Shown here in pieces: positions 1 to 17,072 of a stretch of DNA of 42,001 nucleotides; positions within the stretch are counted from its first letter, which is position 1; the number at the start of each line of letters is the position of its first letter. This DNA is from Candidatus Thiothrix namsaraevi (GTDB taxonomy: Bacteria; Pseudomonadota; Gammaproteobacteria; Thiotrichales; Thiotrichaceae). A program made the translations under genes and the position numbers. The notes under the pieces are model-generated. The model saw nothing but the letters and a program-made list of their open reading frames with translations, was not told the DNA's origin and searched no databases. The stretch spans positions 1-42,001 of the forward strand of contig JBEUIR010000001.1 in assembly GCA_040415395.1 (NCBI GenBank). Reading direction: 5' to 3'.

Positions 1-1
1 C

Positions 2-864: not shown

Positions 865-869
865 TCATT

Positions 870-1190
870 TTAGACTAAATCATGCCCCAGCATATCGCCT
901 TCCGTATTCATGTGGATTTCGCGTACTTGCGGCATCCGCTTGAGGATGTAGGCTGCCATTAGCGTCCCGCTTTTTTGGTTGCCATTGGAAAGTGCGGTCA
1001 AAATCTTGTCTGCCACAATTTGGCAGCGTTGTTCCTGATTGGGGTTGTCTACCCATTTGCGGCTCATTTGATAGCCTTTGCTCATGTCCTGATCCATCTG
1101 TGCGAAAAAGTCTTCGCCTTCCGCCAGCATAAAATCCGGCACGTCAATATCGCGTGTGGTGTCGTTGATTTGTATCCGTAATTGCATCAC
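870..1190 (-). CDS. Hypothetical protein (106 aa), single Cys (QRCQIVADK)
   Basis: The ORF fills the space convergent with soxA and divergent from the next gene, with globular composition. No family recognised with certainty. Confidence 0.75.
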   Translation of the reverse strand: MMQLRIQINDTTRDIDVPDFMLAEGEDFFAQMDQDMSKGYQMSRKWVDNPNQEQRCQIVADKILTALSNGNQKSGTLMAAYILKRMPQVREIHMNTEGDMLGHDLV

Positions 1191-1253
1191 TCTTTACCCT
1201 GTGCTTCTGTCTGGTGGGCAGATTACCCGATTCCGGCTTTGAAAGGAAATGCC

Positions 1254-1922: not shown

Positions 1923-2045
1923 TTACTCATGCAAATTCACCACTAAGCTGAAAATTCCTGTTCTTTATCTGGAATGCAGTTTGCATCCCTCCATTTTTAG
2001 TGGAAAAAGGAGGGATAGTGTAGATGCGACTACAAGGAGTTTTGC

Positions 2046-2927
2046 ATGGGGCAACTGGTAATTAAAAAAGCGTCATGGCTGGAAAGCCATGCCAAGCAGC
2101 TTGTGATTTGGGGGCCGATCGCCGCCGTACAAGCCAGTACCTTGGTCGGTTTGGGATATTTTTCTCAACGTCTTAATGCGTTGGAAGCTAATGAGACACC
2201 GCAGCCACATGCGCCATCTGTCTTGGCAGTCAGTACGTTGCAAGATGTGAAGCCGCCCACGCTGGTGCGAGCCAGTCGTATCCCTCTGCCGCCCCCACCT
2301 GCTGCGCCAGCCGTTGTTAGCATTCCCGTTGCAATGCATAGCCCTGCCGTGATCGACTTCATGCGTGTGGGGCAGGATTTTTCTGCGGTAACAACAACCA
2401 AGCCGGTTGCCGTGAAGAAAAATGTTACGCAAAAAACGGCACAGGTAGCGAAGCCGGTGGTGAAACCGGTTGCAGTTGTTAAATCCAGCGATGAAGAGCG
2501 AGTGGTACAAGCTAACCTTGCAAAAATCCCCAGTAAACCGGAAGCGAATGAGATTGACTTTAAGGTTGCAGATACGAGGGTTATTGATCCTGTGGTGATT
2601 CCTGAGGAAATTCCGCGTGGCAAGCCACTACCTGTCGGTATTGTCGCATGGGTTTATTTGGGTGAGTTACGTGAACAAGGCTGGCATGGGCAGCGTTTAC
2701 ATATTGCGTCAGATAGTGGTTTGCCCGTTGTAGGCGAGCAATACCGTACTCAAAAAATCCACGGTATTTATGATCAGCCTTATGGCAGCCGCACGATGGG
2801 TGGTTTCCAAAAGGGTGATATGGTCAAGATTTTAGACGTGCGCCATGAGGCGAATTTTGGCGTCTGGGCTCAGGTGCGTAAAGTGAGTGCGGTGGGGAAG
2901 CCGGGATGTGTAACGTGTACTCAGTAA
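2046..2927 (+). CDS. Hypothetical membrane-anchored protein with Pro/Val/Lys-rich linker, possible SH3-like C-terminal domain and terminal CxxC
   Basis: SD AAGGAG upstream; N-terminal hydrophobic segment; PLPPPPAAP linker; GFQKGDMVKILDV..VWAQV resembles SH3b; ends in CVTCTQ. Confidence 0.65.
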   Translation: MGQLVIKKASWLESHAKQLVIWGPIAAVQASTLVGLGYFSQRLNALEANETPQPHAPSVLAVSTLQDVKPPTLVRASRIPLPPPPAAPAVVSIPVAMHSPAVIDFMRVGQDFSAVTTTKPVAVKKNVTQKTAQVAKPVVKPVAVVKSSDEERVVQANLAKIPSKPEANEIDFKVADTRVIDPVVIPEEIPRGKPLPVGIVAWVYLGELREQGWHGQRLHIASDSGLPVVGEQYRTQKIHGIYDQPYGSRTMGGFQKGDMVKILDVRHEANFGVWAQVRKVSAVGKPGCVTCTQ

Positions 2928-2951
2928 GAGTGTTGAGCGGTCATTGGCACT

Positions 2952-2978
2952 AAAAAAGCCGCTATGTAGCGGCTTTTT
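2952..2978. terminator. Bidirectional intrinsic terminator
   Basis: AAAAAAGCCGCTA-TG-TAGCGGCTTTTT between convergent genes, with A and T tracts on either side. Confidence 0.85.
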
Positions 2979-2999
2979 ACGCATTTGCAGCTTTGCAGC

Positions 3000-3191
3000 T
3001 TACTTCCAGAAATTCGCTTCTTTGGAGGCAATTTCACGGACTTCGTTAGTCAGTTCTTGGTAACGCTCACGGTAAGCTTTCCACTCACCTACGTAGTATT
3101 CTTCCGCGTTGAATTGACCAGATTGTTCGTATGCGATGAATTTCTTCTGCATTTCCAGCATTTCGCTAATCAGCTCTTGCTTAGTGCTCAT
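3000..3191 (-). CDS. Small helical hypothetical protein (63 aa), last gene of the divergent cluster
   Basis: MSTKQELISEMLEMQKKF...; SD GAGG upstream of ATG 3191; followed by a terminator. Confidence 0.75.
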   Translation of the reverse strand: MSTKQELISEMLEMQKKFIAYEQSGQFNAEEYYVGEWKAYRERYQELTNEVREIASKEANFWK

Positions 3192-3248
3192 GTTCGGTGC
3201 CTCTTCAAATTTAACCAAATCCTGAAAGTAGGATAAACGGATTCAGGT

Positions 3249-3270
3249 AAAAGGGGGAATACCCCCTTTC
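3249..3270 (-). terminator. Hairpin or weak terminator after the DsrC-like gene
   Basis: Minus strand GAAAGGGGG-TATT-CCCCCTTTT with only a 4-U tail. Confidence 0.5.
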
Positions 3271-3279
3271 GGGTAGAAA

Positions 3280-3624
3280 TCAATAGCCGCCTTTGCGGTT
3301 AGTGGCTGGCAGACCTGCGACTTTCAGACCTTGCTTGCTCGGTGCGCGTGGGAACAGGGTGTACATGTCTTTACTGGACAGTTTTTTGTCGCCCCACTGA
3401 TCAGCCATTGCTTTCTGGATAATACGTTCCATTGGCTGTGTGCCGCCGTTGTTGATGTACTGGTCGCGCAGGTAGTTAATGACGTCCCAGTGACGTTCAG
3501 TCAACTCACCAATGCCTTCTTCGGCAGCAATAACTTTAGCAACTTCTTCGTTCCAGTCGTTCAGGTCTACCAAATAACCTGCTTCGGTGGTTTCGATGGT
3601 TGTGCCGTTTACTTCGTAAGCCAT
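3280..3624 (-). CDS. DsrC/TusE-family paralogue lacking all cysteines (RspA-like)
   Basis: GYLVDLNDWNEEVA..IA..EGI.ELTERHWDVINYLR..Y...LFP..P..QG.KVAGLP is the DsrC/TusE fold. The C-terminus is NRKGGY rather than PTGCV. Start ATG 3624 after SD GAGGA. Confidence 0.88.
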   Translation of the reverse strand: MAYEVNGTTIETTEAGYLVDLNDWNEEVAKVIAAEEGIGELTERHWDVINYLRDQYINNGGTQPMERIIQKAMADQWGDKKLSSKDMYTLFPRAPSKQGLKVAGLPATNRKGGY

Positions 3625-3681
3625 GTTTAATTCCTCATGCAAAAGTGAATGTTGCCATTCGATGAAATTCTTGACCGCAAA

Positions 3682-3687
3682 ATTATA
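3682..3687 (-). promoter_or_regulatory. Possible internal -10 box (TATAAT) for the DsrC-like gene
   Basis: Perfect TATAAT on the minus strand about 58 nt upstream of the ATG. No good -35 at 17 bp. Confidence 0.3.
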
Positions 3688-3736
3688 CGAAAAAGCAGTA
3701 AACCGCCCATTCCTCAAAAGGGATACGCCATTCTCG

Positions 3737-3778
3737 CTCCTCTCCACCCTTGAGGGAGAGGGGCTGGGGGTGAGGGGT
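3737..3778 (-). repeat. C-rich REP-like palindromic element, copy 1
   Basis: Minus strand CCCCTCACCCCCAGCCCCTCTCCCTCAAGGGTGGAGAGGAG, beginning 4 nt after the cas6 stop. Confidence 0.7.
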
Positions 3779-3781
3779 TCT

Positions 3782-4471
3782 TTACTCAGTAGGCTTCAAG
3801 GTTTTGATGCCCTTGTGAGGCATAAAAAGCCCGCAACCGAGTTTGCGCCCCTCACCCAGTCCGTATTGCTGCAAGCGGATTGAGGGTTCGCTGTCTAAGT
3901 CCGCAATCATTAAATGACGGGTATGCAATACGCCTGTCGGGGTGAGTAAGGTGTGGCTCTTGCCGCACAGCATTTTTTTTACGTTGAAATCAGCGACCCG
4001 TTTTACTTCTGCCGCCATGCGTTGCAGAAAGCTGTTTTCGTCTTCTGCTGCGTCAGAGAGCACGTAGCGGGCGAATACCACCGAGGTGTGGATGAACGGT
4101 TTTTCCTTCATGTCCCGCAAGCCGACAGCATAGCCATTCACATCCAGTTTTGTACCAGAGAGCGTCTTGGTCTCAGGGATACGGATTTTGGGAATGCGTA
4201 AAAACAGCCGTGTGCGCCGCGAAGGTAGCAGGAATTGATTAGCCGCATCGTCGGGGCGTTCCCAGCCATTGCCACTTTCAGCAACGTGAATGGGGTGGAC
4301 ACCCGCGATGCTTTCATCAGCAAACCAAGGCAGGGCGCGTTGGACAGCTTGTGCCAAATCCCACGCATGATCCAGCGGCAACTGCTTGCAGTCGATGGCG
4401 AAACTAACATCCAGCACCTCATCGGGTGCTTGATAGGGGAGGGTTTTATCCTCGTCTTCCTGCCAAAACAT
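3782..4471 (-). CDS. cas6: Orphan Cas6 RAMP-family endoribonuclease, type I-MYXAN (Cmx6)-like
   Basis: N-terminal D-V-x-F...LPLDHAWDL (P-x-D-H motif); GVHPIH; SRRTRL.LRIP; C-terminal S..LQ..GLGEGRKLGCGLFMPHK Gly-rich loop diagnostic of Cas6. Confidence 0.85.
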   Translation of the reverse strand: MFWQEDEDKTLPYQAPDEVLDVSFAIDCKQLPLDHAWDLAQAVQRALPWFADESIAGVHPIHVAESGNGWERPDDAANQFLLPSRRTRLFLRIPKIRIPETKTLSGTKLDVNGYAVGLRDMKEKPFIHTSVVFARYVLSDAAEDENSFLQRMAAEVKRVADFNVKKMLCGKSHTLLTPTGVLHTRHLMIADLDSEPSIRLQQYGLGEGRKLGCGLFMPHKGIKTLKPTE

Positions 4472-4476
4472 CGTGT

Positions 4477-4674
4477 TTACCTCGCCGACGAAAACGTGAT
4501 TTCCAATTGGTCGTACCAGTCTTCCGGGCGGTCTTTGTAGCCGGGTGGCTCAATGTCAATCTGGAAGAAAATCGCGCCGGTTTCCAAGGCGCGTTGCTGC
4601 ACGATTTGTTTCAGCTCCTCGAAGTTGCTGATGTTGTGACCATCTACCATTAAAATTTGACTTAAACTGAGCAT
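4477..4674 (-). CDS. Small acidic hypothetical protein (65 aa), apparently coupled to cas6
   Basis: Strong SD GAGGAG. Its stop is 5 nt before the cas6 ATG, and the cas6 SD (GAGG) lies in its last codons. Confidence 0.8.
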   Translation of the reverse strand: MLSLSQILMVDGHNISNFEELKQIVQQRALETGAIFFQIDIEPPGYKDRPEDWYDQLEITFSSAR

Positions 4675-4694
4675 ATTCTCTCCTCATGTCTTGT

Positions 4695-4734
4695 TCCCCT
4701 CACCCCTTGCGGGGGAGGGGTTAGGGGTGGTGGG
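4695..4734 (-). repeat. C-rich REP-like palindromic element, copy 2
   Basis: Minus strand CCCACCACCCCTAACCCCTCCCCCGCAAGGGGTGAGGGGA, overlapping the stop of the TauD-like gene, same orientation as copy 1. Confidence 0.7.
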
Positions 4735-5614
4735 TATCCGTGACCCGATCAAAATAACGCCCGCGATACAGCAAGCGGGTTTGTGCTGGGTCTTCACTGT
4801 CTCTAAATGCGGTGCGGCAGTGCAGCACGTTATTGCACAACAAGCCTTCGCCTGCCTGTAATGTGTACCTTATTTTGTAAGGTGAGTCCTGTTGCCATAA
4901 ATTCAATAGGAAATCGGCGGCTTCCCGTGTCATCGGGTCATCGCGCCAGATTACATTGCGCTGGCGGGCGGAATAGCGCATGTGCAAATGCCCCGCAGCG
5001 GTGACGCTAAACACGGGGCCAGATTGTTCGGGGCGAATGATTTCCCCGTTCAAGACATTGGCAGGAATGCTGAAAGCATTCGGATGCATCAGGGCGTGAA
5101 TGTAATCAGGGTTAGCATCGCGTAATAAAATGTAGGCAATTTCATGATCCATCAACCAGCTTTCACCGCCTTCGAGTGCGGGTTGGGCACAATGCAATAA
5201 CATGCCATGAATTTGCTCTTCTGGCAGGTTGTAGTATCCGTCAGTATGCCAACTTAGCGGTTTATTGGTGTAGGGAATGTAATCGTGCTGCCCCGCGTGC
5301 GAGGTAACGTGCAAGGAGGTGAGGCTGTCTGCATCAGCACACAAGTTGTTATCCAGCCGAAACAAACCGACTTTTTGTCCTAAACGATGGACATGGCGTT
5401 TGCTGCGCACGTCGCCTTGCGCAAAATGATACAACGCGAGATTGTGTTCGCGGCAAATGTGCTGGAGTTGCGCTATTTCGGTCTCACTGGGATTTTCGGG
5501 GTCTGCAATTGTGGTGAGCAAGGCGTTCGGCAATAGGGGGTAGGCGGATAATTTTTTGTTGCGCCACGTCTGATACGTCGTTAACGCTTTGATATTAAAG
5601 GGAGAATTATGCAT
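4721..5614 (-). CDS. TauD/TfdA-family Fe(II)/2-oxoglutarate dioxygenase
   Basis: WHTDGYY (HxD), LLHC..PA..GGES.L.D, L..GE.L..NN.LH.R..F (distal His), R.LYRGRY (2OG-binding Arg). Confidence 0.88.
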   Translation of the reverse strand: MHNSPFNIKALTTYQTWRNKKLSAYPLLPNALLTTIADPENPSETEIAQLQHICREHNLALYHFAQGDVRSKRHVHRLGQKVGLFRLDNNLCADADSLTSLHVTSHAGQHDYIPYTNKPLSWHTDGYYNLPEEQIHGMLLHCAQPALEGGESWLMDHEIAYILLRDANPDYIHALMHPNAFSIPANVLNGEIIRPEQSGPVFSVTAAGHLHMRYSARQRNVIWRDDPMTREAADFLLNLWQQDSPYKIRYTLQAGEGLLCNNVLHCRTAFRDSEDPAQTRLLYRGRYFDRVTDTHHP

Positions 5615-5654
5615 ATTGTAGACCTCGATAAAGACCGATAATTACTATAGCTAT

Positions 5655-5682
5655 TTGCAATATTAAAAAATCCGAATATGCT
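5655..5682 (+). promoter_or_regulatory. Candidate sigma70 promoter for the dsr operon with overlapping inverted-repeat operator
   Basis: TTGCAA-N16-TATGCT, with ATATTA-AAAAATCC-GAATAT (5660-5679) spanning the spacer. A second candidate, TTGCTA-N16-TATGTT, lies at 5692-5719. Confidence 0.4.
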
Positions 5683-5935
5683 ATTGTACCGTTGCTAGTG
5701 GACTATTTTTGATTATGTTAAGCGCCTATCTCCTTGGGGATACAGCATGGATTCAGCTAACACCCCATGGGTGAGATTCTATGACGGGAGCATGACGCAT
5801 ACACTTAGCCCACTCGCAAATAGCAGCGAACACAGTTACGTGACCCGTTTTTGATTTGATGTTTCCCTTGGCTTTTAGTTTGTAGAGCAGGTCAAGAGGA
5901 ATCGCCATTGCAATCGTTTTACTGAGGAGGCAGGT

Positions 5936-7231
5936 ATGGCAACGAATAATTATCCAACACCTATGCTGGATGTGCTGGAAGAAGGCCCATGGCCTAGCTT
6001 CATCACTGGTTTCAAGAAACTGCGCGATGAGCATCCAGATGAGCGCATCCGCAATGTGATCAATGGCCTGATGGGTCAGTTGGAGCATTCTTACGAAACC
6101 AAAATGGGCTACTGGAAAGGTGGTACCATTTCTGTCTTCGGTTACGGCGGCGGCATTATCCCGCGCTTCTCTGAAGTCGGTCACATGTTCCCGGAATCCA
6201 AAGAATTCCACACGCTGCGTGTACAGCCGCCTGCTGGCAACTACTACACCACTGATATGCTGCGCCAATTGGCTGATAGCTGGGAAAAGTGGGGTTCTGG
6301 TTTGCAGACCTTCCACGGTCAAACCGGTAACATCATGTTCATCGGTGCGAACAGCGTTAACTTCCAGCACTTCTTTGATGAAATCAACGAATACGGTTGG
6401 GACTTGGGTGGTGCAGGCCCTTGCGTGCGTACCGGTATGTCTTGCGTCGGTGCAGCACGTTGCGAAATGTCTAACTGTAACGAACACGCGATCCATCGCC
6501 GTCTGATGAATAACTTCACGGATGACGTGCATCGCCCGGCTCTGCCTTACAAGTTCAAGTTCAAGGTTTCTGGTTGCCCTAACGATTGCCAGAACGCGAT
6601 TGAGCGTGCGGACTTTGCTGTTATCGGTACTTGGCGTGATGAGATGAAGGTCAACCAAGAAGCCGTTAAAGAAATGATCATGAAAAAAGCCAAGGAAATT
6701 GGCAAAGAAGGTGATCGTTCTGCGGGTCGTCAATACATGTTCGATAACGTGATTAGCCGTTGCCCAACGCAGGCTATCAAGCTGAACGACGACGACACCA
6801 TTACCGTTGATAACAGCAACTGTGTACGTTGTATGCACTGCCTGAACGTTATGCCAAAAGCACTGCAAGTCGGCGACGACAAAGGCGTAACCATCCTGAT
6901 CGGCGGTAAGCGTACCCTGAAAATCGGTGACTTGATGGGTACAGTCGTTATCCCATTCATGAAGCTGGATAACGAAGAAGATTATGAGCGCATTGTTGAG
7001 TTGGCTGCTTCCATCATCGACTTCTGGGCTGAAAATGGTCTGGAACATGAGCGTTGCGGTGAGATGATCGAACGTATCGGTCTGGTGAACTTCTTGGAAG
7101 GCATCGGTATCGACCCGGATCCAAACATGATCAAACAGCCGCGTAACGTTTCTTACGTGCGTACTGATGGTTGGGACGAAGCTGCTGAAGCTTGGTTCAA
7201 CCGCAAGCGTGAAGAAAAAGCAGCGGCGTAA
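5936..7231 (+). CDS. dsrA: Reverse-type dissimilatory sulfite reductase alpha subunit
   Basis: TPMLD.LE.GPWPSF, WKGG...VFGYGGG.I.R, CVG.ARCE, YKFKFKVSGCPNDC, CVRCMHCLN, ER.GE.IER. SD GAGGAGG. Confidence 0.98.
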   Translation: MATNNYPTPMLDVLEEGPWPSFITGFKKLRDEHPDERIRNVINGLMGQLEHSYETKMGYWKGGTISVFGYGGGIIPRFSEVGHMFPESKEFHTLRVQPPAGNYYTTDMLRQLADSWEKWGSGLQTFHGQTGNIMFIGANSVNFQHFFDEINEYGWDLGGAGPCVRTGMSCVGAARCEMSNCNEHAIHRRLMNNFTDDVHRPALPYKFKFKVSGCPNDCQNAIERADFAVIGTWRDEMKVNQEAVKEMIMKKAKEIGKEGDRSAGRQYMFDNVISRCPTQAIKLNDDDTITVDNSNCVRCMHCLNVMPKALQVGDDKGVTILIGGKRTLKIGDLMGTVVIPFMKLDNEEDYERIVELAASIIDFWAENGLEHERCGEMIERIGLVNFLEGIGIDPDPNMIKQPRNVSYVRTDGWDEAAEAWFNRKREEKAAA

Positions 7232-7242
7232 TACCGCACTTC

Positions 7243-7272
7243 CAACTGGGGCAGGCTGGCTTGCCTCAGTTG
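7243..7272 (+). other. Intercistronic stem-loop between dsrA and dsrB (no U tail)
   Basis: CAACTGGGGCAGG-CTGG-CTTGCCTCAGTTG, 13 bp including two G-U pairs. Confidence 0.7.
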
Positions 7273-7318
7273 TCTGATACTTAACGAATTTTGAGTTTAC
7301 TCTGACGGAGGCTTCGCA

Positions 7319-8395
7319 ATGGCCGCACCAGAAATGCGCGATCCTATTGAATCTGGATGCCCGGACGGTTTCCAGTACATGCACCCTGTTATGCGCCGCA
7401 ACTACGGTTTGTGGGCATATCATGAAGACCCACGCCCAGGCGTTTTGGTTCACGTTTCCAAAACTGGCGAAAAGATTTGGACAGTTCGTGCCGGTACTCA
7501 ACGTATCCTCGACGTGTTCACGCTGCGCAAGCTGATGGACATCGGTGATACTTATGGTGATGGTTATGTCCATTTCACTATTCGTTCCAACATCGAATTC
7601 CAGATTGCTGACGGCGCGAAAGTAGAGCCACTGGTAAAAGCATTGGAAGATGCGGGTTTCCCAGTCGGTGGTACTCGTAACTCCGTGACTTCACTGTCTC
7701 ATACTCAAGGCTGGTTGCACTGCGACATTCCGGGTACTGACGCATCCGGTGTGGTTAAATCCATGATGGATGAGTTGCTGCCTGAGTTTAAAGCATGGAA
7801 CATGCCTAACCGCGTTCATATCACCACGTCTTGCTGCCAGATCAACTGCGGCGGTCAAGGTGACATCGCGATCAACGTCCAGCACGTTAAGCCACCAAAA
7901 ATCAACCACTCGCTGGTTGGTAATGTGTGCGAACGTCCTACCGTTGTAGCCCGTTGCCCAGTAGCGGCTATCCGCCCTGCTATGGTTGACGGCAAGCCTT
8001 CCTTGGAAGTTGATGAGAAGAAGTGCATTTGCTGTGGTGCTTGCTATCCGCCATGCCCACCTATGCAAATCAACGACCACCAGTACACCCAATTGGCTAT
8101 CTGGATCGGTGGTAATCACTCCAATGCACGTGGCAAGCCTACTTTCCAACGTTTGGTGGCAGCGGGTATCCCGAACAACCCACCACGTTGGCCTGAAGCG
8201 ACCGCGATCGTTAAGAAGATTCTGGAATGCTACAAAGCAGGTGCGAAAGACTGGGAGCGTATCAACGAGTGGGTTGAGCGCATCGGCTGGCCGCGTTTCT
8301 TTGAAGTGACTGGTTTGCCATTCACGAAGTACCACATCGACAACTGGCGTGGTGCGCGTGCGAACCTGAACTCTTCAACGCACATCCGCTTCTGA
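7319..8395 (+). CDS. dsrB: Reverse-type dissimilatory sulfite reductase beta subunit
   Basis: HTQGWLHCDIP, TSCCQINCGG, CERP...ARCP, CICCGACYPPCP, PNNPPRWPE, ERIGWPRFF. Confidence 0.98.
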   Translation: MAAPEMRDPIESGCPDGFQYMHPVMRRNYGLWAYHEDPRPGVLVHVSKTGEKIWTVRAGTQRILDVFTLRKLMDIGDTYGDGYVHFTIRSNIEFQIADGAKVEPLVKALEDAGFPVGGTRNSVTSLSHTQGWLHCDIPGTDASGVVKSMMDELLPEFKAWNMPNRVHITTSCCQINCGGQGDIAINVQHVKPPKINHSLVGNVCERPTVVARCPVAAIRPAMVDGKPSLEVDEKKCICCGACYPPCPPMQINDHQYTQLAIWIGGNHSNARGKPTFQRLVAAGIPNNPPRWPEATAIVKKILECYKAGAKDWERINEWVERIGWPRFFEVTGLPFTKYHIDNWRGARANLNSSTHIRF

Positions 8396-8423
8396 TCGAC
8401 AACGGTACGAGGAATAGCACGGA

Positions 8424-8816
8424 ATGAAATACACAATTATGGTTAACGAAGGCCCGTATCAGCACCAATCTGCTGATACTGCCTTGCAGTTCACCCGTGC
8501 CGCGCTGGAGAAGGGACACGAGATTTTCCGTGTGTTCTTCTACCACGACGGCGTAAATAACGGCACACGCCTGAGTGTTCCACCGGCTGATGACCGTCTG
8601 ATCCAGAAATCTTGGTCAGAATTGGCTGAAAAGCACGGCTTGGATTTGGTTATCTGTATTGCAGCGGCACAACGCCGTGGCTTGATGGATGCCGATGAAG
8701 CCAAACGTCAAGGTCTGGACGCTAACAACATTGCCCCCGGTTTCCGTATTTCGGGCTTGGGTCAGTTGGTTGAAGGCGGTATCCAGTCTGATCGTTTAGT
8801 CGTGTTTGGCGATTAA
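8424..8816 (+). CDS. dsrE: Sulfurtransferase DsrE (TusD family)
   Basis: EGPY, VFFYHDGV, active Cys in VICIAAAQRRG, GFRISGLGQL. Confidence 0.96.
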   Translation: MKYTIMVNEGPYQHQSADTALQFTRAALEKGHEIFRVFFYHDGVNNGTRLSVPPADDRLIQKSWSELAEKHGLDLVICIAAAQRRGLMDADEAKRQGLDANNIAPGFRISGLGQLVEGGIQSDRLVVFGD

Positions 8817-8829
8817 GGAGCTGAAGAAA

Positions 8830-9234
8830 ATGTCTACAAAGAATTTTTTGTTTGTCAATCGTAAAGCTCCTTACGGCACAGTCTACGCACTGGAGGCGTT
8901 GGAAGTCGTGCTGATTTCCGCTGCGTTTGAGCAAAACGTTAGTTTGGCATTCATCGACGACGGTGTTTACCAAATTACCAAAGGCCAAAACAGCAAAGAA
9001 ACCGGCATGAAGAATTTCTCGCCGACTTTCCGCGCATTGGGTGATTACGACATTACCAAGTTGTATGTCTCTACCGAGTCTTTGGCAGAACGTGGTCTGA
9101 CGGTTGATGACCTGATGGAACTCACTTACGAAGATGCTGACGACGATTACGCTGAAAAGCCTTCCATTATTCTGGTCAACCGCGAGGAAATGACTGCAAT
9201 GATGGCAGAGCAAGAAGTGATTTTGAGCTTCTAA
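8830..9234 (+). CDS. dsrF: DsrF (TusC family)
   Basis: RKAPYGT..A.EALE, F.DDGVYQ..KGQ, ESL.ERGL. ATG 8830 after SD AAGGAG. Confidence 0.95.
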   Translation: MSTKNFLFVNRKAPYGTVYALEALEVVLISAAFEQNVSLAFIDDGVYQITKGQNSKETGMKNFSPTFRALGDYDITKLYVSTESLAERGLTVDDLMELTYEDADDDYAEKPSIILVNREEMTAMMAEQEVILSF

Positions 9235-9248
9235 CGGAGGATTTGAAC

Positions 9249-9554
9249 ATGTCTATGTTACATATTGTCAATAAGTCCCCGTTTGAACGTGTGGCTTTTG
9301 AGAGCTGCTTGGCTCATGCCAAGGCAGGTGATTCGATCCTGATGATTGAAGATGCCGTGGTTGGTGCAGTCGACGGGTCAAGCTTTTCTGGTAAAGTAAA
9401 GGCTGCGATGTCTGATAAGACGGTGTATGTGTTGGGTGCAGACCTAGCGGCACGCGGTTTGGAAGGCAAAGCAATAGACGGGATTGTGAGCGTTGATTAC
9501 GCGGGTTTTGTAGACCTGACGACAAATAACGACACCACCCAAAGCTGGCTGTAA
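9249..9554 (+). CDS. dsrH: DsrH (TusB family)
   Basis: MLHIVNKSPF, SCL, IEDAV, DL.ARG, VDY.GFVDL, QSWL. SD GGAGG. Confidence 0.95.
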   Translation: MSMLHIVNKSPFERVAFESCLAHAKAGDSILMIEDAVVGAVDGSSFSGKVKAAMSDKTVYVLGADLAARGLEGKAIDGIVSVDYAGFVDLTTNNDTTQSWL

Positions 9555-9585
9555 GTTTTAACATTTTTTGACAGGAGGCCACACA

Positions 9586-9921
9586 ATGGCATCAATTAAC
9601 GTTGGCGGTAAAGAGATCGCGCTGGACGAAGAAGGCTATCTGGAAAACCTGAGCGACTGGACTCCAGAAGTGGCAGAAGTTCTGGCTAATGGCGAAGACG
9701 TAACCCTGACTAGCGAACACTGGGAAATCCTGAATTTCCTGCGTGAATACTATGAAGAGTACCAAATTGCTCCAGCAGTGCGCGTTCTGACTAAAGCAGT
9801 TGGTAAGCGTTTGGGTGCTGACAAAGGTAACTCCAAGTATCTGTACAGCCTGTTCCCATACGGCCCTGGCAAGCAAGCTTGTAAATACGGCGGTCTGCCT
9901 AAGCCAACGGGTTGCGTATAA
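9586..9921 (+). CDS. dsrC: Sulfur carrier DsrC with both conserved C-terminal cysteines
   Basis: DEEGYL..L.DW, HWE...FLR.YY, LFPYGPGKQACKYGGLPKPTGCV. SD AGGAGG. Confidence 0.97.
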   Translation: MASINVGGKEIALDEEGYLENLSDWTPEVAEVLANGEDVTLTSEHWEILNFLREYYEEYQIAPAVRVLTKAVGKRLGADKGNSKYLYSLFPYGPGKQACKYGGLPKPTGCV

Positions 9922-9925
9922 TGTC

Positions 9926-9953
9926 GTAGGGGCGGTTCATGAACCGCCCGTAC
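9926..9953. repeat. GTAG-type REP palindrome downstream of dsrC
   Basis: GTAGGGGCGGTTCATGAACCGCCCGTAC, a 28-bp near-perfect palindrome starting with GTAG. Confidence 0.75.
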
Positions 9954-10070
9954 AGAGCATATATATACCGTTGGTGTATGAAAGAGTTGCTCCGGCTCGC
10001 CGGAGCCTCTTCTTAAGCCCTGTTGTTGACAGGTTTTCAGAAGAGAGACTAATGACTTCAGGAGTACGCA

Positions 10071-10841
10071 GTGACATTCGTAAGTATTCTTTACGGACTG
10101 TTGTTTTGGGCGGCAACGTTAATTTTGATTGGCGGTGTGGCTATGAAGGTCCGCCAGTATTGGAACACCCCAGCCCCATTGAAGATTCCGACCACACCCG
10201 CACCGGTTACGCAGGGCGGTGTTGTATGGCGCATGTTCCGTGAAGTGGTGTTTTTTCAGAGTTTGTTCCGTTCCAACAAAACTTTGTGGTTGTTTGCGTT
10301 CCTGTTCCACATTTCCTTGTGGTTGGTGCTGATCCGCCATACCCGTTATTTCATGGAAATGGGGGCAGTGCTAACGTTCCTGCAACCGTTTGGGAAGTAT
10401 GCTGGTTTCACGATGGTGTTGGGTCTGGCAGGTTTGTGGGCGCGTCGCTTCCTTGTGGATCGTGTGCGTTACATTTCCGCGCCTTCTGACCATTTGATGT
10501 TGGCATTGCTGATTGCCATTGGTGGCAGCGGTTTACTAATGACCTTTGTAACCCATACGGATGTCACTCAGGTTAAAGCATTCTTCGGTGGTTTATTGAC
10601 CTTCGGTTTCTTTGGTGACGCAGGCGGCTTGCCAGCCGATCCGATTGTATTGGTGCATTTGTTGTTAGTGGCATTGCTAATGATCATTTTCCCGATCAGT
10701 AAGTTAATGCACGCTCCGGGTATCTTTTTCAGCCCGACTCGTAACCAAGTGGATAACCCGCGTGAAAAACGCCATGTATCCGGCTGGGCATTGGAATTGG
10801 AACGTCAAGGTAAAAACTACCTCGACGAACTGAAGAAATAA
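10071..10841 (+). CDS. dsrM: DsrM, NarI-like membrane b-type cytochrome
   Basis: GTG start; TM helices with His ligands (FH, RH, VH, MH); RVRYIS.PSD; PISKLMHAPGIFFSPTRNQ. Confidence 0.95.
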   Translation: MTFVSILYGLLFWAATLILIGGVAMKVRQYWNTPAPLKIPTTPAPVTQGGVVWRMFREVVFFQSLFRSNKTLWLFAFLFHISLWLVLIRHTRYFMEMGAVLTFLQPFGKYAGFTMVLGLAGLWARRFLVDRVRYISAPSDHLMLALLIAIGGSGLLMTFVTHTDVTQVKAFFGGLLTFGFFGDAGGLPADPIVLVHLLLVALLMIIFPISKLMHAPGIFFSPTRNQVDNPREKRHVSGWALELERQGKNYLDELKK

Positions 10842-10854
10842 TGAGGTAAGCATC

Positions 10855-12411
10855 GTGGCTGATTACGAAGTTCCAAAATTGACGGGTGAAGGGTATTGCG
10901 AGATTCCCGCAGTACGCGAAGGCGTGATGGAGAGCAAAGGCCCTTTCATCGCTAAGCCAGATTTTCAGTCGGCCTTGCATTTTCCGGCGGATTTTGATGC
11001 AGCAGGGTCATTAGTACCCAACTGGAAAGAACGTGCCCTCGACAAAATGGCTGATTTGAAAGGTCGTTACCGTTCGCTGCAAGTGTTCTTGGATATTTGC
11101 GTCAAATGTGGCGCGTGTACTGACAAGTGTCATTACTTCATTGGAACATCTGATGCGAAAAACATGCCCGTGGCGCGTCAGGACTTGTTGCGTAAAGTTT
11201 ATCGCCGTTACTTCACGTTTGCGGGTAAATATTTCCCCAAACTGGTCGGTGCAACTGACCTGACCGAAGAAGTGTTGGCAGACTGGTATAACTATTATCA
11301 CCAGTGTTCTCAGTGCCGTCGTTGTTCCGTGTTTTGCCCTTACGGCATTGATACGGCCGAAATTTCAATGGCAGCGCGTGAAATTCTTGATCATGTTGGT
11401 TACGGTCAAAAGTATTGCAACGAGATTATCGGCAAGGTCTTTAAGATCGGTAATAATCTCGGTCTGCCAGGCCCGGCATTGTTCGATACAGTGGAGGGTT
11501 TGGAAGAAGACGTTGAGATGGATACCGGCATTAAAGTCCGTTTCCCGCTCGACGAAGACGGCGCGGAAGTGTTGTTGGTAACGCCGTCAGCAGACTTCTT
11601 TGCCGAACCGCATATCGACGGTTTGATCGGTTACGCGAAAGTGTTCCACGAAACTGGCGTGACTTGGACGATGAGTACCATTGCGTCAGAAGCGGGTAAC
11701 TTCGGCATGTTCATTGGCTCTTACGAGACCATGCGCAGGGTTTCTTTGCGGGTTCGAGAAGCCGCGATCAAGCACAAAGTTAAGCGCATTGTGTTCGGCG
11801 AATGTGGTCATGCATGGCGGGTAGCTTACAGCTTCCTGAATACCTTGGCTGGGCCGTTTGATTTCTTGGATCAGCGTTACCCTGTGCCACAACACATTCT
11901 GGAGTTCACTTGGAGCCAAATTCAAGCCGGTAACTTGCAGATTGATAAGACTGAGAATGACGACAAAGTCTTGACCTTCCACGACTCGTGCAATGTAGCG
12001 CGTGGTAGCCGCATGGGTGATTACCCCGGTGGTCAGTTCGACATTCCGCGTAACGTTATTCGTGCGGTATGTAACAACTTTGTGGACATGCCAGCCGATA
12101 CCATCCATGACGCGACTTTCTGTTGCGGTGGTGGCGGCGGTTTGCTGACTGATGACTTGATGGAAATCCGTGTGAAAGGTATTCAGCCGCGTGCAGAAGC
12201 CCTCAAGCATGTCACCACGCACAATGGTGTGACGCACATGGCTGCGATTTGCGCGATTTGCAAATCACAATTTACGAAAGTGTTGCCGTATTACGGTTTC
12301 ACGATGGATCAAATTGTTAGTGTTCACCAGTTGGTGAGTAACGCGCTTGTCCTGCAACGGCAAGTGTCCGTGCAGGCACGTCCCGACGATGAAGACGGCG
12401 ACGAAGACTAA
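10855..12411 (+). CDS. dsrK: DsrK, HdrD-like Fe-S catalytic subunit
   Basis: CVKCGACTDKC, CSQCRRCSVFCP, GECGH.WR, HDSCN..R, CCGGGGG, CAIC. Confidence 0.97.
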   Translation: MADYEVPKLTGEGYCEIPAVREGVMESKGPFIAKPDFQSALHFPADFDAAGSLVPNWKERALDKMADLKGRYRSLQVFLDICVKCGACTDKCHYFIGTSDAKNMPVARQDLLRKVYRRYFTFAGKYFPKLVGATDLTEEVLADWYNYYHQCSQCRRCSVFCPYGIDTAEISMAAREILDHVGYGQKYCNEIIGKVFKIGNNLGLPGPALFDTVEGLEEDVEMDTGIKVRFPLDEDGAEVLLVTPSADFFAEPHIDGLIGYAKVFHETGVTWTMSTIASEAGNFGMFIGSYETMRRVSLRVREAAIKHKVKRIVFGECGHAWRVAYSFLNTLAGPFDFLDQRYPVPQHILEFTWSQIQAGNLQIDKTENDDKVLTFHDSCNVARGSRMGDYPGGQFDIPRNVIRAVCNNFVDMPADTIHDATFCCGGGGGLLTDDLMEIRVKGIQPRAEALKHVTTHNGVTHMAAICAICKSQFTKVLPYYGFTMDQIVSVHQLVSNALVLQRQVSVQARPDDEDGDED

Positions 12412-12472
12412 TTACGACATTTATTTCCGCGTGGCATAGCCGCGAGTGGACTGAAATTAACAGGAGATAGGC

Positions 12473-14434
12473 ATGGCAACCGCAGCTCACGACAGCAAGC
12501 TTTTAGGTCAAGGTCACACGTACCGCCGTTTTAAAGATGGCGACAACGAATGGGGCAGTATGCACGACAGTATTTTCGTGCAGGATACAACCCATAAATG
12601 CCCTACCTACATTCACAAAACGCCACCTTGCCAAGGTAGCTGCCCGTCGGGTGAAGACATTCGTGGCTGGTTGCAGATCGTGCGCGGCATTGAAAAGCCC
12701 CCCGTTGGCATGACCATGCAAGAGTATGCATTCCGTCGCTCCACCGATGCTAACCCGTTCCCGTCGATGATGGGTCGTGTTTGCCCGGCTCCTTGTCAAA
12801 CCGGTTGTAACCGTAACGACGTTGACGATTTCGTCGGCATTAATGCGGTCGAGCAATACATCGGCGATAGCGCGATTGCGGCTGGTTTCAAGTTTGATGC
12901 ACCTAGCGAGCTGAGTGGTAAGAAAGTGGCTATCGTTGGCGGTGGGCCAGCGGGTATGGCGGCTGCTTATCAATTACGTCGTATGGGTCATGCGTCTACC
13001 GTGTTTGAACAGCACCCTGAATTGGGCGGCATGATGCGTTACGGTATTCCGGGTTATCGTGTACCACGCGACAAGCTGGGTGCGGAAATGCAACGTATCA
13101 TCGACATGGGTGACATCACGATTAAGTGTAACACCACCGTCGGTAAAGACGTAAGCATCGAGCAACTGGAAAGCGATTTCGACGCAATCCTGTGGACGGT
13201 TGGTTGCTGGAATGGTCGTGGTCTGTTCGTTGATAAGTTTGCAGAAACACCAAACTGCGTGTCTGCGGTTGACTTCCTCGAAGCCTATAATAAAGGCACG
13301 ATGAAATACACCGCACCTCGCGTGGTGTGCGTGGGTGGTGGTGATACCTCCATCGACGTGGTTTCCGTCTCACGCCGTATCGGTACATTGGCGAACTACG
13401 CAGAAAATGCGGAAGATTCCGCGACTGGCAAACTGACTCACGGTGATGTGGGCGAGAAGGCACCTGCAACTGTTACCCTGACTACCTTGTTCCCGCTGGA
13501 TCAAATGACGGCTGCGGAACACGAAGTACAGGACGCGCTGAAAGAAGGCGTGACTATCCTGACGCAAGTGATGCCGAAGGAAATCATTTTCGGTGCTGAC
13601 GGTCGGGCGATTGGTCTGAAGGTTGTCGAGTGCGTGATGAAAGGCAATATGCCGCAAGCGTGCGAAGGTGGCAAAGAAACCATTATCGAAGCGGACATTA
13701 TCGTTTCTGCTATCGGTCAGTTCGGTAAATTGGATGGTATCGAAGCTCTGAACAATGGTCGTAACCAAATCAATGCTGACGCACTGTATCAAGTGCCGGG
13801 CAAGAAAGGTCATTTCGCAGCGGGTGACGCAGTACGTCCTCACTTGTTGACGACGGCTATTGGTCAAGCGTCTATCGCATCTGAAACGATTCATCGTTAC
13901 TTGCTGGCGGAAGAACAAACCAAGCGTCCGAAAGTGGATAAGCACCACTTTGACCTGATGGCAAAACTGCAAGAGGCAGGTTTGGAACCAGCAGGTTATG
14001 AGTCAAGCCGTGCAGAAGACATGCGCGGTACAGACGGTGCGAAATACGCGGTACATAACTACGATGACCGTTCCAAAAACGTGATCGTGCCTTCCAAAGA
14101 TTTGTTCTTGGGACACTTCAATACCGTAGCACGTAACCTGCGTACTGAAGACGTACCAACGGCTGAAGAAGTACTGGGTCACTTTGCAGAGCGTATGAAC
14201 CCATTGCCAGAAGCCGATGCGGTTAACGAAGCCAAGCGTTGCATGAGTTGCGGTATGTGTTTCGAGTGTGACAACTGCGTTATTTACTGCCCGCAAACTG
14301 CCGTTTACCGCGTGCCTAAGAAGCAGGCGACGCTGGGTCGTTATGTTGCAACCGACTACTCCAAATGTATCGGCTGCCATATTTGCGCAGACGTTTGCCC
14401 AACTGGGTACATCGAAATGGGTCTGGGCGAGTAA
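12473..14434 (+). CDS. dsrL: DsrL, NAD(P)H:acceptor oxidoreductase Fe-S flavoprotein
   Basis: PPCQGSCP, GRVCPAPCQ.GCNR, GGGPAG, GGGDT, EAKRCMSCGMCFECDNC, C-terminal ferredoxin CIGCHICADVCP. Confidence 0.96.
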   Translation: MATAAHDSKLLGQGHTYRRFKDGDNEWGSMHDSIFVQDTTHKCPTYIHKTPPCQGSCPSGEDIRGWLQIVRGIEKPPVGMTMQEYAFRRSTDANPFPSMMGRVCPAPCQTGCNRNDVDDFVGINAVEQYIGDSAIAAGFKFDAPSELSGKKVAIVGGGPAGMAAAYQLRRMGHASTVFEQHPELGGMMRYGIPGYRVPRDKLGAEMQRIIDMGDITIKCNTTVGKDVSIEQLESDFDAILWTVGCWNGRGLFVDKFAETPNCVSAVDFLEAYNKGTMKYTAPRVVCVGGGDTSIDVVSVSRRIGTLANYAENAEDSATGKLTHGDVGEKAPATVTLTTLFPLDQMTAAEHEVQDALKEGVTILTQVMPKEIIFGADGRAIGLKVVECVMKGNMPQACEGGKETIIEADIIVSAIGQFGKLDGIEALNNGRNQINADALYQVPGKKGHFAAGDAVRPHLLTTAIGQASIASETIHRYLLAEEQTKRPKVDKHHFDLMAKLQEAGLEPAGYESSRAEDMRGTDGAKYAVHNYDDRSKNVIVPSKDLFLGHFNTVARNLRTEDVPTAEEVLGHFAERMNPLPEADAVNEAKRCMSCGMCFECDNCVIYCPQTAVYRVPKKQATLGRYVATDYSKCIGCHICADVCPTGYIEMGLGE

Positions 14435-14472
14435 TCGTCCTTTCCATGAGTGCAGGCTCGACAGGAATCAGC

Positions 14473-14985
14473 ATGACTAGCAAGTTTTCTAACATCTTTT
14501 TGGCTTCAGTGTTGGCATTAGCCACGCTGTTGTCGGGTTGTGATTCAGCACCAGCAGCGGGGACTAACCTCGAAACAGCTAAGCAAAAAGCTGATCAGTG
14601 TGTTGAACCAACCGACAAAATGCGTAGTAATCACATGAGCATGTTGGATCACCAGCGTGATGCTACGATGATTGAAGGTATTCGTACCAAGCAACACAGC
14701 TTGAACGAGTGCATCAATTGTCACGTTGCGCCGACTAAAGATGACGGTACGCCGTTGCATTACGGTGATGATCAGCATTTTTGTACCACTTGCCATGCGG
14801 CGGTGGGGCAGAAGATTGATTGTTTCCAATGTCATGCTGACCGCCCAGCAGGTGATGAAAATTACCAGCATAAAGTAGGCAGTGCGGATGCACATCACTT
14901 TACCCAAGGTGTTGTCAGTGCTGCTATGCCTACGGCTGCTGAAGTGCAAATGGTGGTTCAACCACAACAAGGAGCTGCGCAATGA
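14473..14985 (+). CDS. dsrJ: DsrJ, triheme c cytochrome (lipoprotein-type signal)
   Basis: CVEP...MR.NHM..L.HQRD; three CxxCH motifs (CINCH, CTTCH, CFQCH); lipobox LSGC. Start is 14473 or possibly 14446. Confidence 0.92.
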   Translation: MTSKFSNIFLASVLALATLLSGCDSAPAAGTNLETAKQKADQCVEPTDKMRSNHMSMLDHQRDATMIEGIRTKQHSLNECINCHVAPTKDDGTPLHYGDDQHFCTTCHAAVGQKIDCFQCHADRPAGDENYQHKVGSADAHHFTQGVVSAAMPTAAEVQMVVQPQQGAAQ

Positions 14986-15734
14986 ATCAGAACCGTGTTG
15001 ATGAATACCGCCGCAATTTTATGACAGCCTTGGGTGGTGTCGCGGCAGTCGCGGTGGTTGCGCCTAGTTTTGTGTTGCAGACAGCACACGCGGCTGGTGA
15101 AGTCACTGCGAAACCTGCGGATCAGGCGGTTACCGATGCGAAGCGTTGGGGCATGTTGATTGACGTGACCAAGCTTACCGATGGCGGCGCAGCTATGGTC
15201 GCCGCGTGTAAAAAAGAACATGGCTGGGGTGATGAAGCGCATTCTGACGCTACCCAAAAAGCGCATTGGGCGCGGGTGGTGAAAGTCACGGATAAGCTGA
15301 CCCAGAATAGTTTCAGTCTGCCAGTGATGTGCCAGCATTGCGAAAATCCACCGTGCGTTGATGTTTGCCCAACGGGCGCATCCATGAAGCGTGCGGATGG
15401 GATTGTGCAAGTTAACAAACATACTTGTATCGGTTGCCGTTATTGCATGATGGCTTGCCCGTACAAAGCACGTAGCTTTGTACATGAGCATTTGGTTGAT
15501 CAAAAAGCACATTCGCCACGCGGTATTGGTACGGTTGAATCGTGCAATATGTGCGTGCATCGCGTGGATAATGGTCAGTTACCAGCCTGTGTAGACGCAG
15601 CACCGGATGCAGTGACCTTCGGTGACTTGAATGACCCTAACAGCACGCTGAGCCAAACGTTGAAAGCTATCGGTGGGAAGCAAATCCGTGCTGATCTTGG
15701 TTTAAATACTGGCGTGCGCTACCACGGCATCTAA
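14982..15734 (+). CDS. dsrO: DsrO, periplasmic Fe-S protein (NrfC-like)
   Basis: Tat motif RRNFM; CQHCENPPCVDVCP; CIGCRYCMMACPY; CNMC..R..PAC. Confidence 0.95.
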   Translation: MNQNRVDEYRRNFMTALGGVAAVAVVAPSFVLQTAHAAGEVTAKPADQAVTDAKRWGMLIDVTKLTDGGAAMVAACKKEHGWGDEAHSDATQKAHWARVVKVTDKLTQNSFSLPVMCQHCENPPCVDVCPTGASMKRADGIVQVNKHTCIGCRYCMMACPYKARSFVHEHLVDQKAHSPRGIGTVESCNMCVHRVDNGQLPACVDAAPDAVTFGDLNDPNSTLSQTLKAIGGKQIRADLGLNTGVRYHGI

Positions 15735-15752
15735 CGGAAAGGACGAACAGCA

Positions 15753-16961
15753 ATGGCTAGTCAAGCAATCATTTTCCGCGAAACCAACGACGGCAAGGGT
15801 TTTTACATCCTGTTGGCGGTTTTGGGTGCATTCCTCGCACTGGGTGCGCTGGCATTTTTCAATGCTGAACATCATGGTCATCATGTCACAGGCATGAATA
15901 ACCAAATTGTTTGGGGTTTGCCGCACGTTTTTGCGATTGGTTTGATCGTCGCAGCTTCCGGCGCATTGAATGTCGGTTCAATCGGCACTGTATTCGGTAA
16001 GAAAATCTATCAACCCATGGGGCGTTTGTCGGCATTACTGGCGATTTCCTTACTGATTGGTGGTTTGATCGTGCTGGTGCTGGATTTAGGTCGGCCTGAC
16101 CGTTTGATCGTGGCGATGACCACCTTTAACTTTAAGTCGATCTTTGCGTGGAACATTATCCTCTATAACGGTTTCTTGGCCTTATCAGCGGTATATATCT
16201 GGACGATGATGGATCGTCAGGTGAAGGGCTATTACAAGATGGCGGGTATTGCGGCATTTACTTGGCGTTTGGTCCTGACTGCTGGTACTGGCTCGATCTT
16301 CGGCTTCTTGGTGGCGCGTGATTTTTACAATTCAGCGGTCATGGCTCCGTTATTTATCGTCATGTCATTTGCAATGGGCTTAGCGGTTTTCATTTTGGTC
16401 TTGCACTTTGCGTATGCTTGGACAGGTCGCCAATTGGGTAATGCGGTGATGAACCGCTTGCGTTATTTGCTGGCAGTGTTCATCGGTGGCGTATTGTTGC
16501 TGGAAGGCGCACGTCATTTCACCGGTTTGTACATTGCACAGAAGGCTGGTGTGGAAAACTTCATTTTGTTTGACGGTGGTGTTTACACGCAGTTGTTCTG
16601 GGTTGGGCAAATTCTGCTGGGTAGTTTGCTGCCTTTGTCGCTGATTTTCTGCCGTAGGCTGGCAAATAACCGTGTGGCATTACTGTTGGCCGCAGCGTTC
16701 ACTATCGTGGGTAGCTTTGCGCAATTGTATGTGATTTTGATTGGTGGGCAGGCTTACCCGTTGGTCTTGTTCCCCGGTGCTGAAGTTTCCAGCGATTACT
16801 TTGATGGTGTGATTAATAGCTACGTGCCAAGCATTTGGGAGTTGATGTTAGGTTTGGGTGGTGTGGCGCTTACCTTAGTGATGGTGACTGTTGGGGTGAA
16901 AGTGCTGCGTTTCCTGCCGGATTCTTTGTCGGATGCAGTGGCTGATCCGCACAGCAAGTAA
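15753..16961 (+). CDS. dsrP: DsrP, NrfD/PsrC-family membrane protein
   Basis: TGM...I.WGLPH, LDLGRPDR, about 10 TM helices, IGGQAYP. Confidence 0.95.
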   Translation: MASQAIIFRETNDGKGFYILLAVLGAFLALGALAFFNAEHHGHHVTGMNNQIVWGLPHVFAIGLIVAASGALNVGSIGTVFGKKIYQPMGRLSALLAISLLIGGLIVLVLDLGRPDRLIVAMTTFNFKSIFAWNIILYNGFLALSAVYIWTMMDRQVKGYYKMAGIAAFTWRLVLTAGTGSIFGFLVARDFYNSAVMAPLFIVMSFAMGLAVFILVLHFAYAWTGRQLGNAVMNRLRYLLAVFIGGVLLLEGARHFTGLYIAQKAGVENFILFDGGVYTQLFWVGQILLGSLLPLSLIFCRRLANNRVALLLAAAFTIVGSFAQLYVILIGGQAYPLVLFPGAEVSSDYFDGVINSYVPSIWELMLGLGGVALTLVMVTVGVKVLRFLPDSLSDAVADPHSK

Positions 16962-16993
16962 GTAGCAGCATTTACGTGCTTGAATTTTAAGAG

Positions 16994-17022: not shown

Positions 17023-17027
17023 GTGGT

Positions 17028-17061: not shown

Positions 17062-17072
17062 ATGTTACGGTT

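Follow-up and report, generated by a model that had tools for sequence, protein, structure and literature searches.

The closest described relatives of the gene analyzed here are the Cas6/Cmx6 proteins of type I-B (I-MYXAN) CRISPR systems (structures 8FCJ_B and 8FCU_B), with which its product shares the double-RAMP fold, the glycine-rich loop (G-loop), and residues D21, P32, D34, L39, R92, R135, F148, and Q201. Unlike these proteins, the form linked to the reverse-dsr locus (hereafter designated dsr-type) has no adjoining cas3, cas8, cas7, or cas5 gene or array, is acidic rather than basic, and occurs as a single copy tied to dsrA. It has lost Y37 and H51 together with the RR hairpin and R208, and it has acquired a W-x-E extension at the N-terminus, an NGWxRP loop, and a PHK tail at the C-terminus. 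Stand-alone Cas6 proteins, which serve type I-A and III arrays from another locus according to the available part of PMC5965381, likewise have a gene apart from the effector operon; however, they remain dependent on genomic arrays and effectors, whereas half of the dsr-type carriers have no cas1. Accessory Dsr proteins of sulfur oxidizers, covered in the available part of PMC8477390 (DsrEFH, DsrL, and the DsrC/TusE/RspA family), resemble the present Cas6 relative in being co-distributed and co-located with oxidative dsrAB, and its downstream neighbor is a cysteine-less DsrC/TusE/RspA-family member. It differs from them in its CRISPR-derived fold, in going unmentioned in that part of PMC8477390, and in its restriction to Gammaproteobacteria (0/40 in other dsrA-positive Pseudomonadota).

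The dsr-linked Cas6 relative is apparently undescribed in the openly accessible literature searched, and subscription work on Allochromatium vinosum (transcriptomes, proteomes, and mutants) may list it. The available parts of PMC5728499, PMC10952691, PMC8477390, PMC9372919, PMC11096372, PMC5965381, PMC10910872, PMC5294841, and PMC5944118 contain no dsr-linked Cas6, and the last of these places a DsrC-like gene at a distance of four locus tags from that cluster of dsr genes with no Cas6 mentioned there. We consider that the protein has a Cas6 fold domesticated away from CRISPR (probability about 0.93), and that a gene derived from a Cas gene is held as tightly as a dsr gene across globally important sulfur oxidizers. 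If true, this would be a Cas protein fully domesticated into core energy metabolism; to our knowledge, reuse of Cas proteins is known mostly within nucleic-acid defense, mobility, or guide-directed regulation. An orphan member from Thiobacillus denitrificans is presumably recorded in the curator's note of TIGR02807; in that case, it had already been noticed, though without its dsr link.

A Cas6 fold in an operon divergent from dsrA

The 229-aa ORF at positions 3782..4471 (minus strand) of the window, that is, the whole stretch of 42,001 nucleotides analyzed, has the acidic N-terminus MFWQEDEDK and the motifs P32-L33-D34-H35, S84-R-R-T-R88, and G204-L-G-E-G-R-K-L-G-C-G-L-F216, all as read in the first-pass annotation of the sequence. 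Its placement there in the Cas6 I-MYXAN family was borne out clearly by PF09559 (E 1.7e-53, 181.9 bits, cut-off 26.7) and marginally missed by TIGR02807, for which the score of 98.1 bits is borderline to the curated cut-off of 98.85; two dsr-type orthologues passed this cut-off (129 and 101.3 bits), and CRISPR-linked copies scored 188–219 bits. A fold search with the AlphaFold2 model (pLDDT 91.5, built from 144 sequences) gave Cas6 proteins as the best matches, the top one being 8FCJ_B, the Cas6 of a type I-B CAST (Z 23.6, rmsd 2.3 Å, 196 residues aligned, 24% identity). In the model and the alignment, the protein has the duplicated ferredoxin/RAMP fold with the C-terminal G-rich loop, whose residues G204, G206, G212, and G214 are conserved at 99–100% among 148 dsr-type copies. 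Close homologues carry the name Thiothrix, and the ESM Atlas, queried with the homologue P0001, returned Cas6/Cmx6 clusters only. Longer, fused forms were not found in 929 candidates (weak evidence), nor was a relative found in the viral contigs searched. Among contigs from RNA libraries of relatives, one from X5 spanned positions 3587–4862 and a 247-nt piece from X2 lay over the gene, with no cover by those from X3 and X4; such contigs are assembled and may include DNA, and they were not counted as expression.

The gene lies in an operon that encodes, in order, a TauD-like dioxygenase, a 65-aa microprotein, the Cas6 relative, a DsrC/TusE-family protein, and a 63-aa protein, and that diverges from the reverse-dsr operon dsrABEFHCMKLJOP (5936..16961, plus strand), identified by profile search of the window ORFs. 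By its profile, the first gene (4721..5614, minus strand) encodes a TauD/TfdA-family 2OG-Fe(II) dioxygenase-like protein. The pairing with a non-cas microprotein, noted at first pass, holds: the 65-aa ORF (4477..4674, minus strand) ends 5 nt before the start of the Cas6 relative and matched no family in Pfam or NCBIfam, and the model of its acidic, three-helix product (pLDDT 83.9) had a best fold match of Z 4.9, nothing being assignable. The RspA-like DsrC/TusE-family protein (3280..3624, minus strand; start codon from sequence) is without the C-terminal redox cysteines and has an R-K-G-G-Y tail, and the last gene (3000..3191, minus strand) encodes the 63-aa conserved hypothetical protein. The counts among 80 named loci, many of which are cut by contig ends, were 75 for the microprotein, 62 for the TauD-like gene, 59 for dsrA, and 52 for the 63-aa gene.

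A DsrC-family gene immediately follows the Cas6 relative on its 3' side in 42 of 56 other loci, and 101 of 103 such downstream frames have no cysteine in the last 14 residues, nearly all ending in K-G-G-Y. The near-invariant R-K-G-G-Y stands where DsrC has its catalytic cysteines. This paralogue may act as a mimic of DsrC or an inhibitor of DsrAB, or as a DNA-binding regulator; dsrA-positive genomes contain it whether or not the Cas6 relative is present. Other conserved neighbors are two more 2OG-Fe(II) oxygenases, Sfum_1244/DUF6866, Alvin_2107, and a TrpD-like protein; the clustering of up to three 2OG-Fe(II) oxygenases at the dsr locus hints at oxygen-dependent control.

Several minor features were also observed around the operon. 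At positions 870–1922 of the window, an unknown protein of 105 aa and a PKHD-type Fe(II) hydroxylase are encoded near the module, being present in 44 and 50 of the 80 named loci, respectively. In 22 of 56 loci (e.g., L080:6561–7274), an acidic unannotated protein of ~237 aa lies between the microprotein and the Cas6 relative and largely replaces the 63-aa gene; it does not occur in this window. REP-like palindromes at 3731–3782 and 4691–4735, with ~13 similar sites in the genome, bracket the Cas6–microprotein pair; the copy at 4691–4735 is strain-specific, since contigs of relatives in two runs are without 4684–4743.

Linkage to dsr and independence of cas genes

The first-pass designation of the gene as an orphan proved correct for the locus and incorrect for the genome. 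In the window, none of the other 44 ORFs scanned matched a cas family, no regularly spaced repeats occurred among the 20 largest repeat families, and an array finder run on contig C1 detected no CRISPR array. Other contigs carry cas1 at five loci and three or more arrays (C226, C327, and C354), the cas types read from frames being I-C (C91), II-C (C207), an I-D-like operon (C152), and parts of type III. Other Cas6 candidates are present as well: C133 has a PF10040 match (1e-15), C152 a G-loop protein within its type I-D-like operon, and C327 an RT-Cas1 frame with a Cas6 tail; in this genome of 876 contigs, not all arrays are assignable to operons. PF09559 itself is single-copy here. The C327 frame (1225–3018) starts with a Cas6 G-loop, runs on into RT-like and Cas1 sequence, and lies next to a CRISPR array; it probably represents a Cas6-RT-Cas1 fusion truncated at the contig end.

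The distribution of the protein was analyzed with PF09559, dsrA, and cas1 profiles in a sample of 401 genomes of Gammaproteobacteria, which was spread evenly over taxonomic families and restricted to a completeness of 90% or more. PF09559 was detected in 126 and dsrA in 125 genomes, with 120 having both, 6 PF09559 only, 5 dsrA only, and 270 neither (phi 0.94), whereas the corresponding numbers for PF09559 and cas1 were 65 with both, 61 with PF09559 only, 87 with cas1 only, and 188 with neither (phi 0.19); no p-value is given for co-occurrence, because related genomes are not independent. (The cas1-only row includes one unpublished genome, G037, on which no conclusion rests.) Among the 120 genomes having both PF09559 and dsrA, cas1 was absent in 60 and present in the other 60. 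Moreover, a CRISPR-type copy occurred in only 4 of the 126 PF09559-positive genomes. Many annotations as "type I-MYXAN Cas6" in Gammaproteobacteria thus do not denote a CRISPR system, 120 of the 126 PF09559-positive genomes being dsrA-positive.

The linkage is also physical. Of 130 places of PF09559, 94 were within 6 kb of dsrA, every one of them in divergent orientation (94/94), 4 were far off on the same contig, and 32 were on other contigs. The gene is single-copy in all but 2 of the 126 genomes, also in the 1.1-Mb genomes G159 and G304. Among 12 cas1-less carriers checked, none had type III RAMPs and 10 had no cas3 above the cut-off (it was present in G374 and G071); several closed carrier genomes have no cas1, cas3, or RAMP gene. 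A search with PF01905 (DevR/Cas7) was uninformative, as it missed the positive control G019.

The exceptions to the co-occurrence are of several kinds. The six genomes with PF09559 but no dsrA comprise G019 and G270, whose copies are truly CRISPR-linked; G259, whose locus shows part of a dsrA; G110, an assembly of 430 contigs at 90% completeness; and G140 and G400 (both listed as 100% complete), which have a dsr-type gene with no dsrAB found. Three of the five dsrA-positive, PF09559-negative genomes have a contig end just 5' of dsrA; G394 (10 contigs) and G209 lack the microprotein too. In the family of G400 (L046), G125 (L049), and G279 (L050), the module is scattered across the genome; G400, where no dsrAB was found, retains the microprotein and the RKGGY protein as well as the Cas6 relative.

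In a phylum-wide sample of 301 genomes, the Cas6 relative was present in all three dsrA-positive Gammaproteobacteria and in none of 40 dsrA-positive members of other Pseudomonadota (0/5 on retest with the clade's own profile). It is therefore not present wherever oxidative dsrAB is (120/125 in Gammaproteobacteria, 0/40 in other Pseudomonadota) and is an accessory rather than a universal Dsr part. Twelve non-gammaproteobacterial loci were fetched, of which five have a divergent TauD-like gene and three the microprotein; the RKGGY tail was found in the same three genomes (3/5) as the microprotein, the Cas6 relative being absent. These results indicate that the module extends beyond the range of the Cas6 relative; the latter is either a gammaproteobacterial addition or lost elsewhere, and it is not the obligate partner of the microprotein and the RKGGY paralogue.

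Among 258 loci with a Cas6 match, none held both dsr-module and cas genes. After 29 short or duplicate rows were dropped, 229 sequences entered an unrooted tree, in which 148 dsr-type copies (144 with module genes in the locus and 4 assigned by score) and 81 CRISPR-type copies (63 with cas genes and 18 without context) were split, unmixed, by one branch (FastTree support 0.98; SH-aLRT 100 in a subsample of 48 rows). Three proteobacterial copies and five cyanobacterial plasmid copies served as seeds for the CRISPR side, so that the tree does not cover all Cmx6, and the direction from CRISPR to dsr is suggested by the remainder of the Cas6 superfamily. L097, the deepest dsr-type copy, retains DHGY, has lost H51, has no NGW loop, and is already located between dsrA and the DsrC paralogue. 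In 88 loci, distances of the Cas6 relative correlated with those of DsrA (rho 0.38, against a maximum of 0.17 in permutations), and the trees shared 13 of 31 supported splits with 7 conflicting, so the congruence is only moderate. The dN/dS values against three Thiothrix orthologues were 0.049–0.060, with dS partly saturated, indicating that the dsr-type gene is under purifying selection. On plasmid pGMOR1 of Gloeobacter morelensis (L263:3971–6169), a Cmx6 gene without cas3 or cas8 in the fetched stretch adjoins PAPS-reductase-family and hypothetical genes; the former is reminiscent of the CysH-like genes in type IV-B systems.

Exchange of conserved surfaces

Besides the shared residues named at the outset, H35 (98% of dsr-type and 86% of CRISPR-type copies) and the G-loop glycines are kept in both groups. 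Other positions separate them sharply. CRISPR-linked copies keep Y37 (98%), H51 (98%), R172 (100%), R173, R176, K180, and R208 (94%), none of which is conserved in the dsr clade; Y37 and H51 occur together in 61 of 63 CRISPR-linked copies versus 1 of 148 dsr-type copies, and the present protein has W37, A51, S172, H173, and G208 at CRISPR-invariant sites. The mean number of Lys and Arg residues is 5.1 versus 1.8 in the beta-hairpin and 2.8 versus 1.5 in the G-loop, and the median net charge is +7 for CRISPR-type versus −5 for dsr-type copies (−1 when the first 18 residues are excluded). The earlier reading of intact catalytic-type motifs is hence right for His35 and the G-loop and wrong for Tyr37 with His51 and the Arg-rich hairpin, which are gone.

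The His35 position is presumably where Cas6e and Cas6f have their catalytic histidine. In 8FCJ_B, the Y37 and H51 positions are kept, and Asn stands at that of His35. The Cas6 of P. furiosus has the active-site residues Y31, H46, and K52, according to the available part of PMC5965381. We infer from the similar Tyr–His spacing that Y37 and H51 may be the catalytic pair of Cmx6, although His35 could be catalytic instead; the equivalence with Y31 and H46 is one of spacing, because the CRISPR-type Cmx6 profile missed the P. furiosus Cas6 among solved structures.

In exchange, the dsr clade has gained, at 84–100%, W3, C28, H62, N68-G69-W70, R72-P73, S84, R86, R97, K166, R185, M188, H219, and K220. 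C28 is present in 89% of dsr-type copies, the same position being Gly in 95% of CRISPR-type copies, and falls to 60% among more distant representatives; H59, H62, and H219 occur in 97%, 89%, and 89% of dsr-type copies, respectively. The invariant basic residues that remain are R86, R92, R135, K166, R185, R209, and K220.

Putative role in the sulfur relay

Exaptation to sulfur metabolism, as proposed at first pass, is strongly supported by the presence of the gene in 120 of 125 dsrA genomes (half of which are cas1-less), the separate clade, the purifying selection, and the RAMP fold. Since the residues kept on the CRISPR side are lost, a non-cutting job there is likely. We infer that a Cas6-fold protein of a type I-B (Cmx6) system left CRISPR when it was recruited, once, by a pre-existing module, consisting of the TauD-like oxygenase, the 65-aa microprotein, and the cysteine-less DsrC paralogue, which occurs without the Cas6 relative in other proteobacteria, and that it would now be a fixed single-copy accessory of the reverse-Dsr locus in Gammaproteobacteria. 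CRISPR-type hairpin cleavage would have been lost and a new binding site gained. From the ferredoxin-fold topology and the secondary structure of the model, C28, H62, N68-G69-W70, R72, S84, and R86 are predicted to gather at the β2–β3 end of the N-terminal domain, and K166, R185, H219, and K220 probably lie on the C-terminal sheet; the new His/Trp/Arg patch may be where an anionic ligand or a partner protein binds. Tentatively, and at slightly less than even odds, the protein is a putative non-cutting adaptor that tunes or matures the DsrAB/DsrC sulfur relay at the protein level.

On a broader level, we think it somewhat probable that the Cas6 fold with its rebuilt site is an unrecognized part of a putative regulatory or maturation module, made up of the oxygenase, the microprotein, the Cas6 relative, and the cysteine-less DsrC mimic, which controls the DsrAB/DsrC relay in nearly all gammaproteobacterial sulfur oxidizers, spanning free-living filaments to 1.1-Mb genomes. 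Counting against the adaptor interpretation are G400 and G140, in which no dsrAB was found, G394, which has dsrA without the Cas6 relative, and the moderate congruence with DsrA. A complex prediction in which the microprotein, the Cas6 relative, and the DsrC paralogue formed three chains scored 0.02 against a mark of 0.32 and weighs neither way on binding, three-chain jobs being unlike the tool's calibration. Regulation and maturation of reverse Dsr are poorly understood, and the operon, the promoter palindrome described below, and the specific residues provide testable handles.

The main rival, which we regard as possible but on the unlikely side, is a non-cleaving RNA-binding regulator that holds RNA in the inter-domain cleft and alters its translation or stability, the ligand being single-stranded or loosely structured dsr mRNA, a small RNA, or tRNA. 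The invariant basic residues, His35, and the G-loop glycines would suit RNA binding as well as an adaptor, R86, R92, R135, K166, R185, and K220 being set in a double RRM-like fold with the G-loop retained; the P. furiosus Cas6 binds RNA opposite its active site (available part of PMC5965381). Inspection of 21 operons by eye showed GC-rich hairpins, variable in sequence, after dsrC in most of them and after dsrA in about half, and these are possible RNA targets recognized by structure only; however, the 1.1-Mb genome G159 is without the hairpins yet keeps the gene, and the protein is net acidic. Searches for a target also speak against this rival: no sequence-conserved RNA element was found by k-mers in the regions upstream of the module genes, no 7-mer was common to more than 6 of the 21 operons in dsr intergenic regions, no run of synonymous-site constraint stood out in nine gene families, the spacer between the Cas6 relative and the DsrC paralogue was unstructured on folding in 58 loci (median z −0.16), and Rfam gave no match in window positions 1–20000.

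Doubtful, and less likely again, is the model of the first-pass annotation, in which the protein is an active endoribonuclease that processes dsr or accessory-operon mRNA through His35. The retention of His35 in 98% of the clade leaves room for RNA binding or His35-based cleavage, as does that of the G-loop glycines (99–100% of 148 dsr-type copies), and Cas6 active sites vary, some being without any histidine (available part of PMC5965381). Nevertheless, Y37 and H51, the Arg-rich hairpin, and one G-loop Arg (R208) are lost, the structurally closest Cas6, 8FCJ_B, is without His35, and neither a conserved cleavage-site motif nor a conserved RNA element was found in the searches above, which weighs against an mRNA-processing role.

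It is improbable that the protein is a small-molecule enzyme or a sulfur- or metal-handling protein acting through the new Cys28/His59/His62/Arg patch. The frequencies of C28, H59, H62, and H219 in dsr-type copies and the neighboring 2OG-Fe(II) oxygenases and sulfur-relay homologues are consistent with such a function, but the drop of C28 to 60% in more distant representatives and the lack of any enzyme fold scoring near Cas6 are not, and the failure to find fused forms weakly disfavors it. Finally, service in trans to arrays elsewhere in the genome, for which the five cas1 loci and the arrays here and the cas1 genes of 60 of 120 carriers could be adduced, or descent as a recent CRISPR remnant nested among CRISPR-linked Cas6 proteins, is very improbable and largely refuted at the clade level by the other Cas6 proteins of this genome, the 60 carriers without cas1 (including closed genomes without cas3 or RAMP), and a deep separate clade under purifying selection (dN/dS ~0.05) that is present in 120 of 125 dsrA genomes.

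The locus comparison also revealed a 16-bp palindrome, TAYCYC-N4-GRGRTA, at 5727..5742 (no strand assigned) in the divergent dsrA/tauD promoter region. It was found in 37 of 58 loci, 126–275 nt 5' of dsrA, compared with a mean of 0.4 and a maximum of 3 in shuffles. Because the half-sites vary independently while their spacing is fixed, the palindrome is likely a DNA operator rather than an RNA hairpin; we take it to resemble operators of the CsoR/RcnR/InrS family. Within 5727–5775, it is followed by a second site like CACCCCATNGGNAGG, and many loci have a TAGACT hexamer 5' of dsrA. Three more matches to the palindrome occur in the genome, on C57, C139, and C147.
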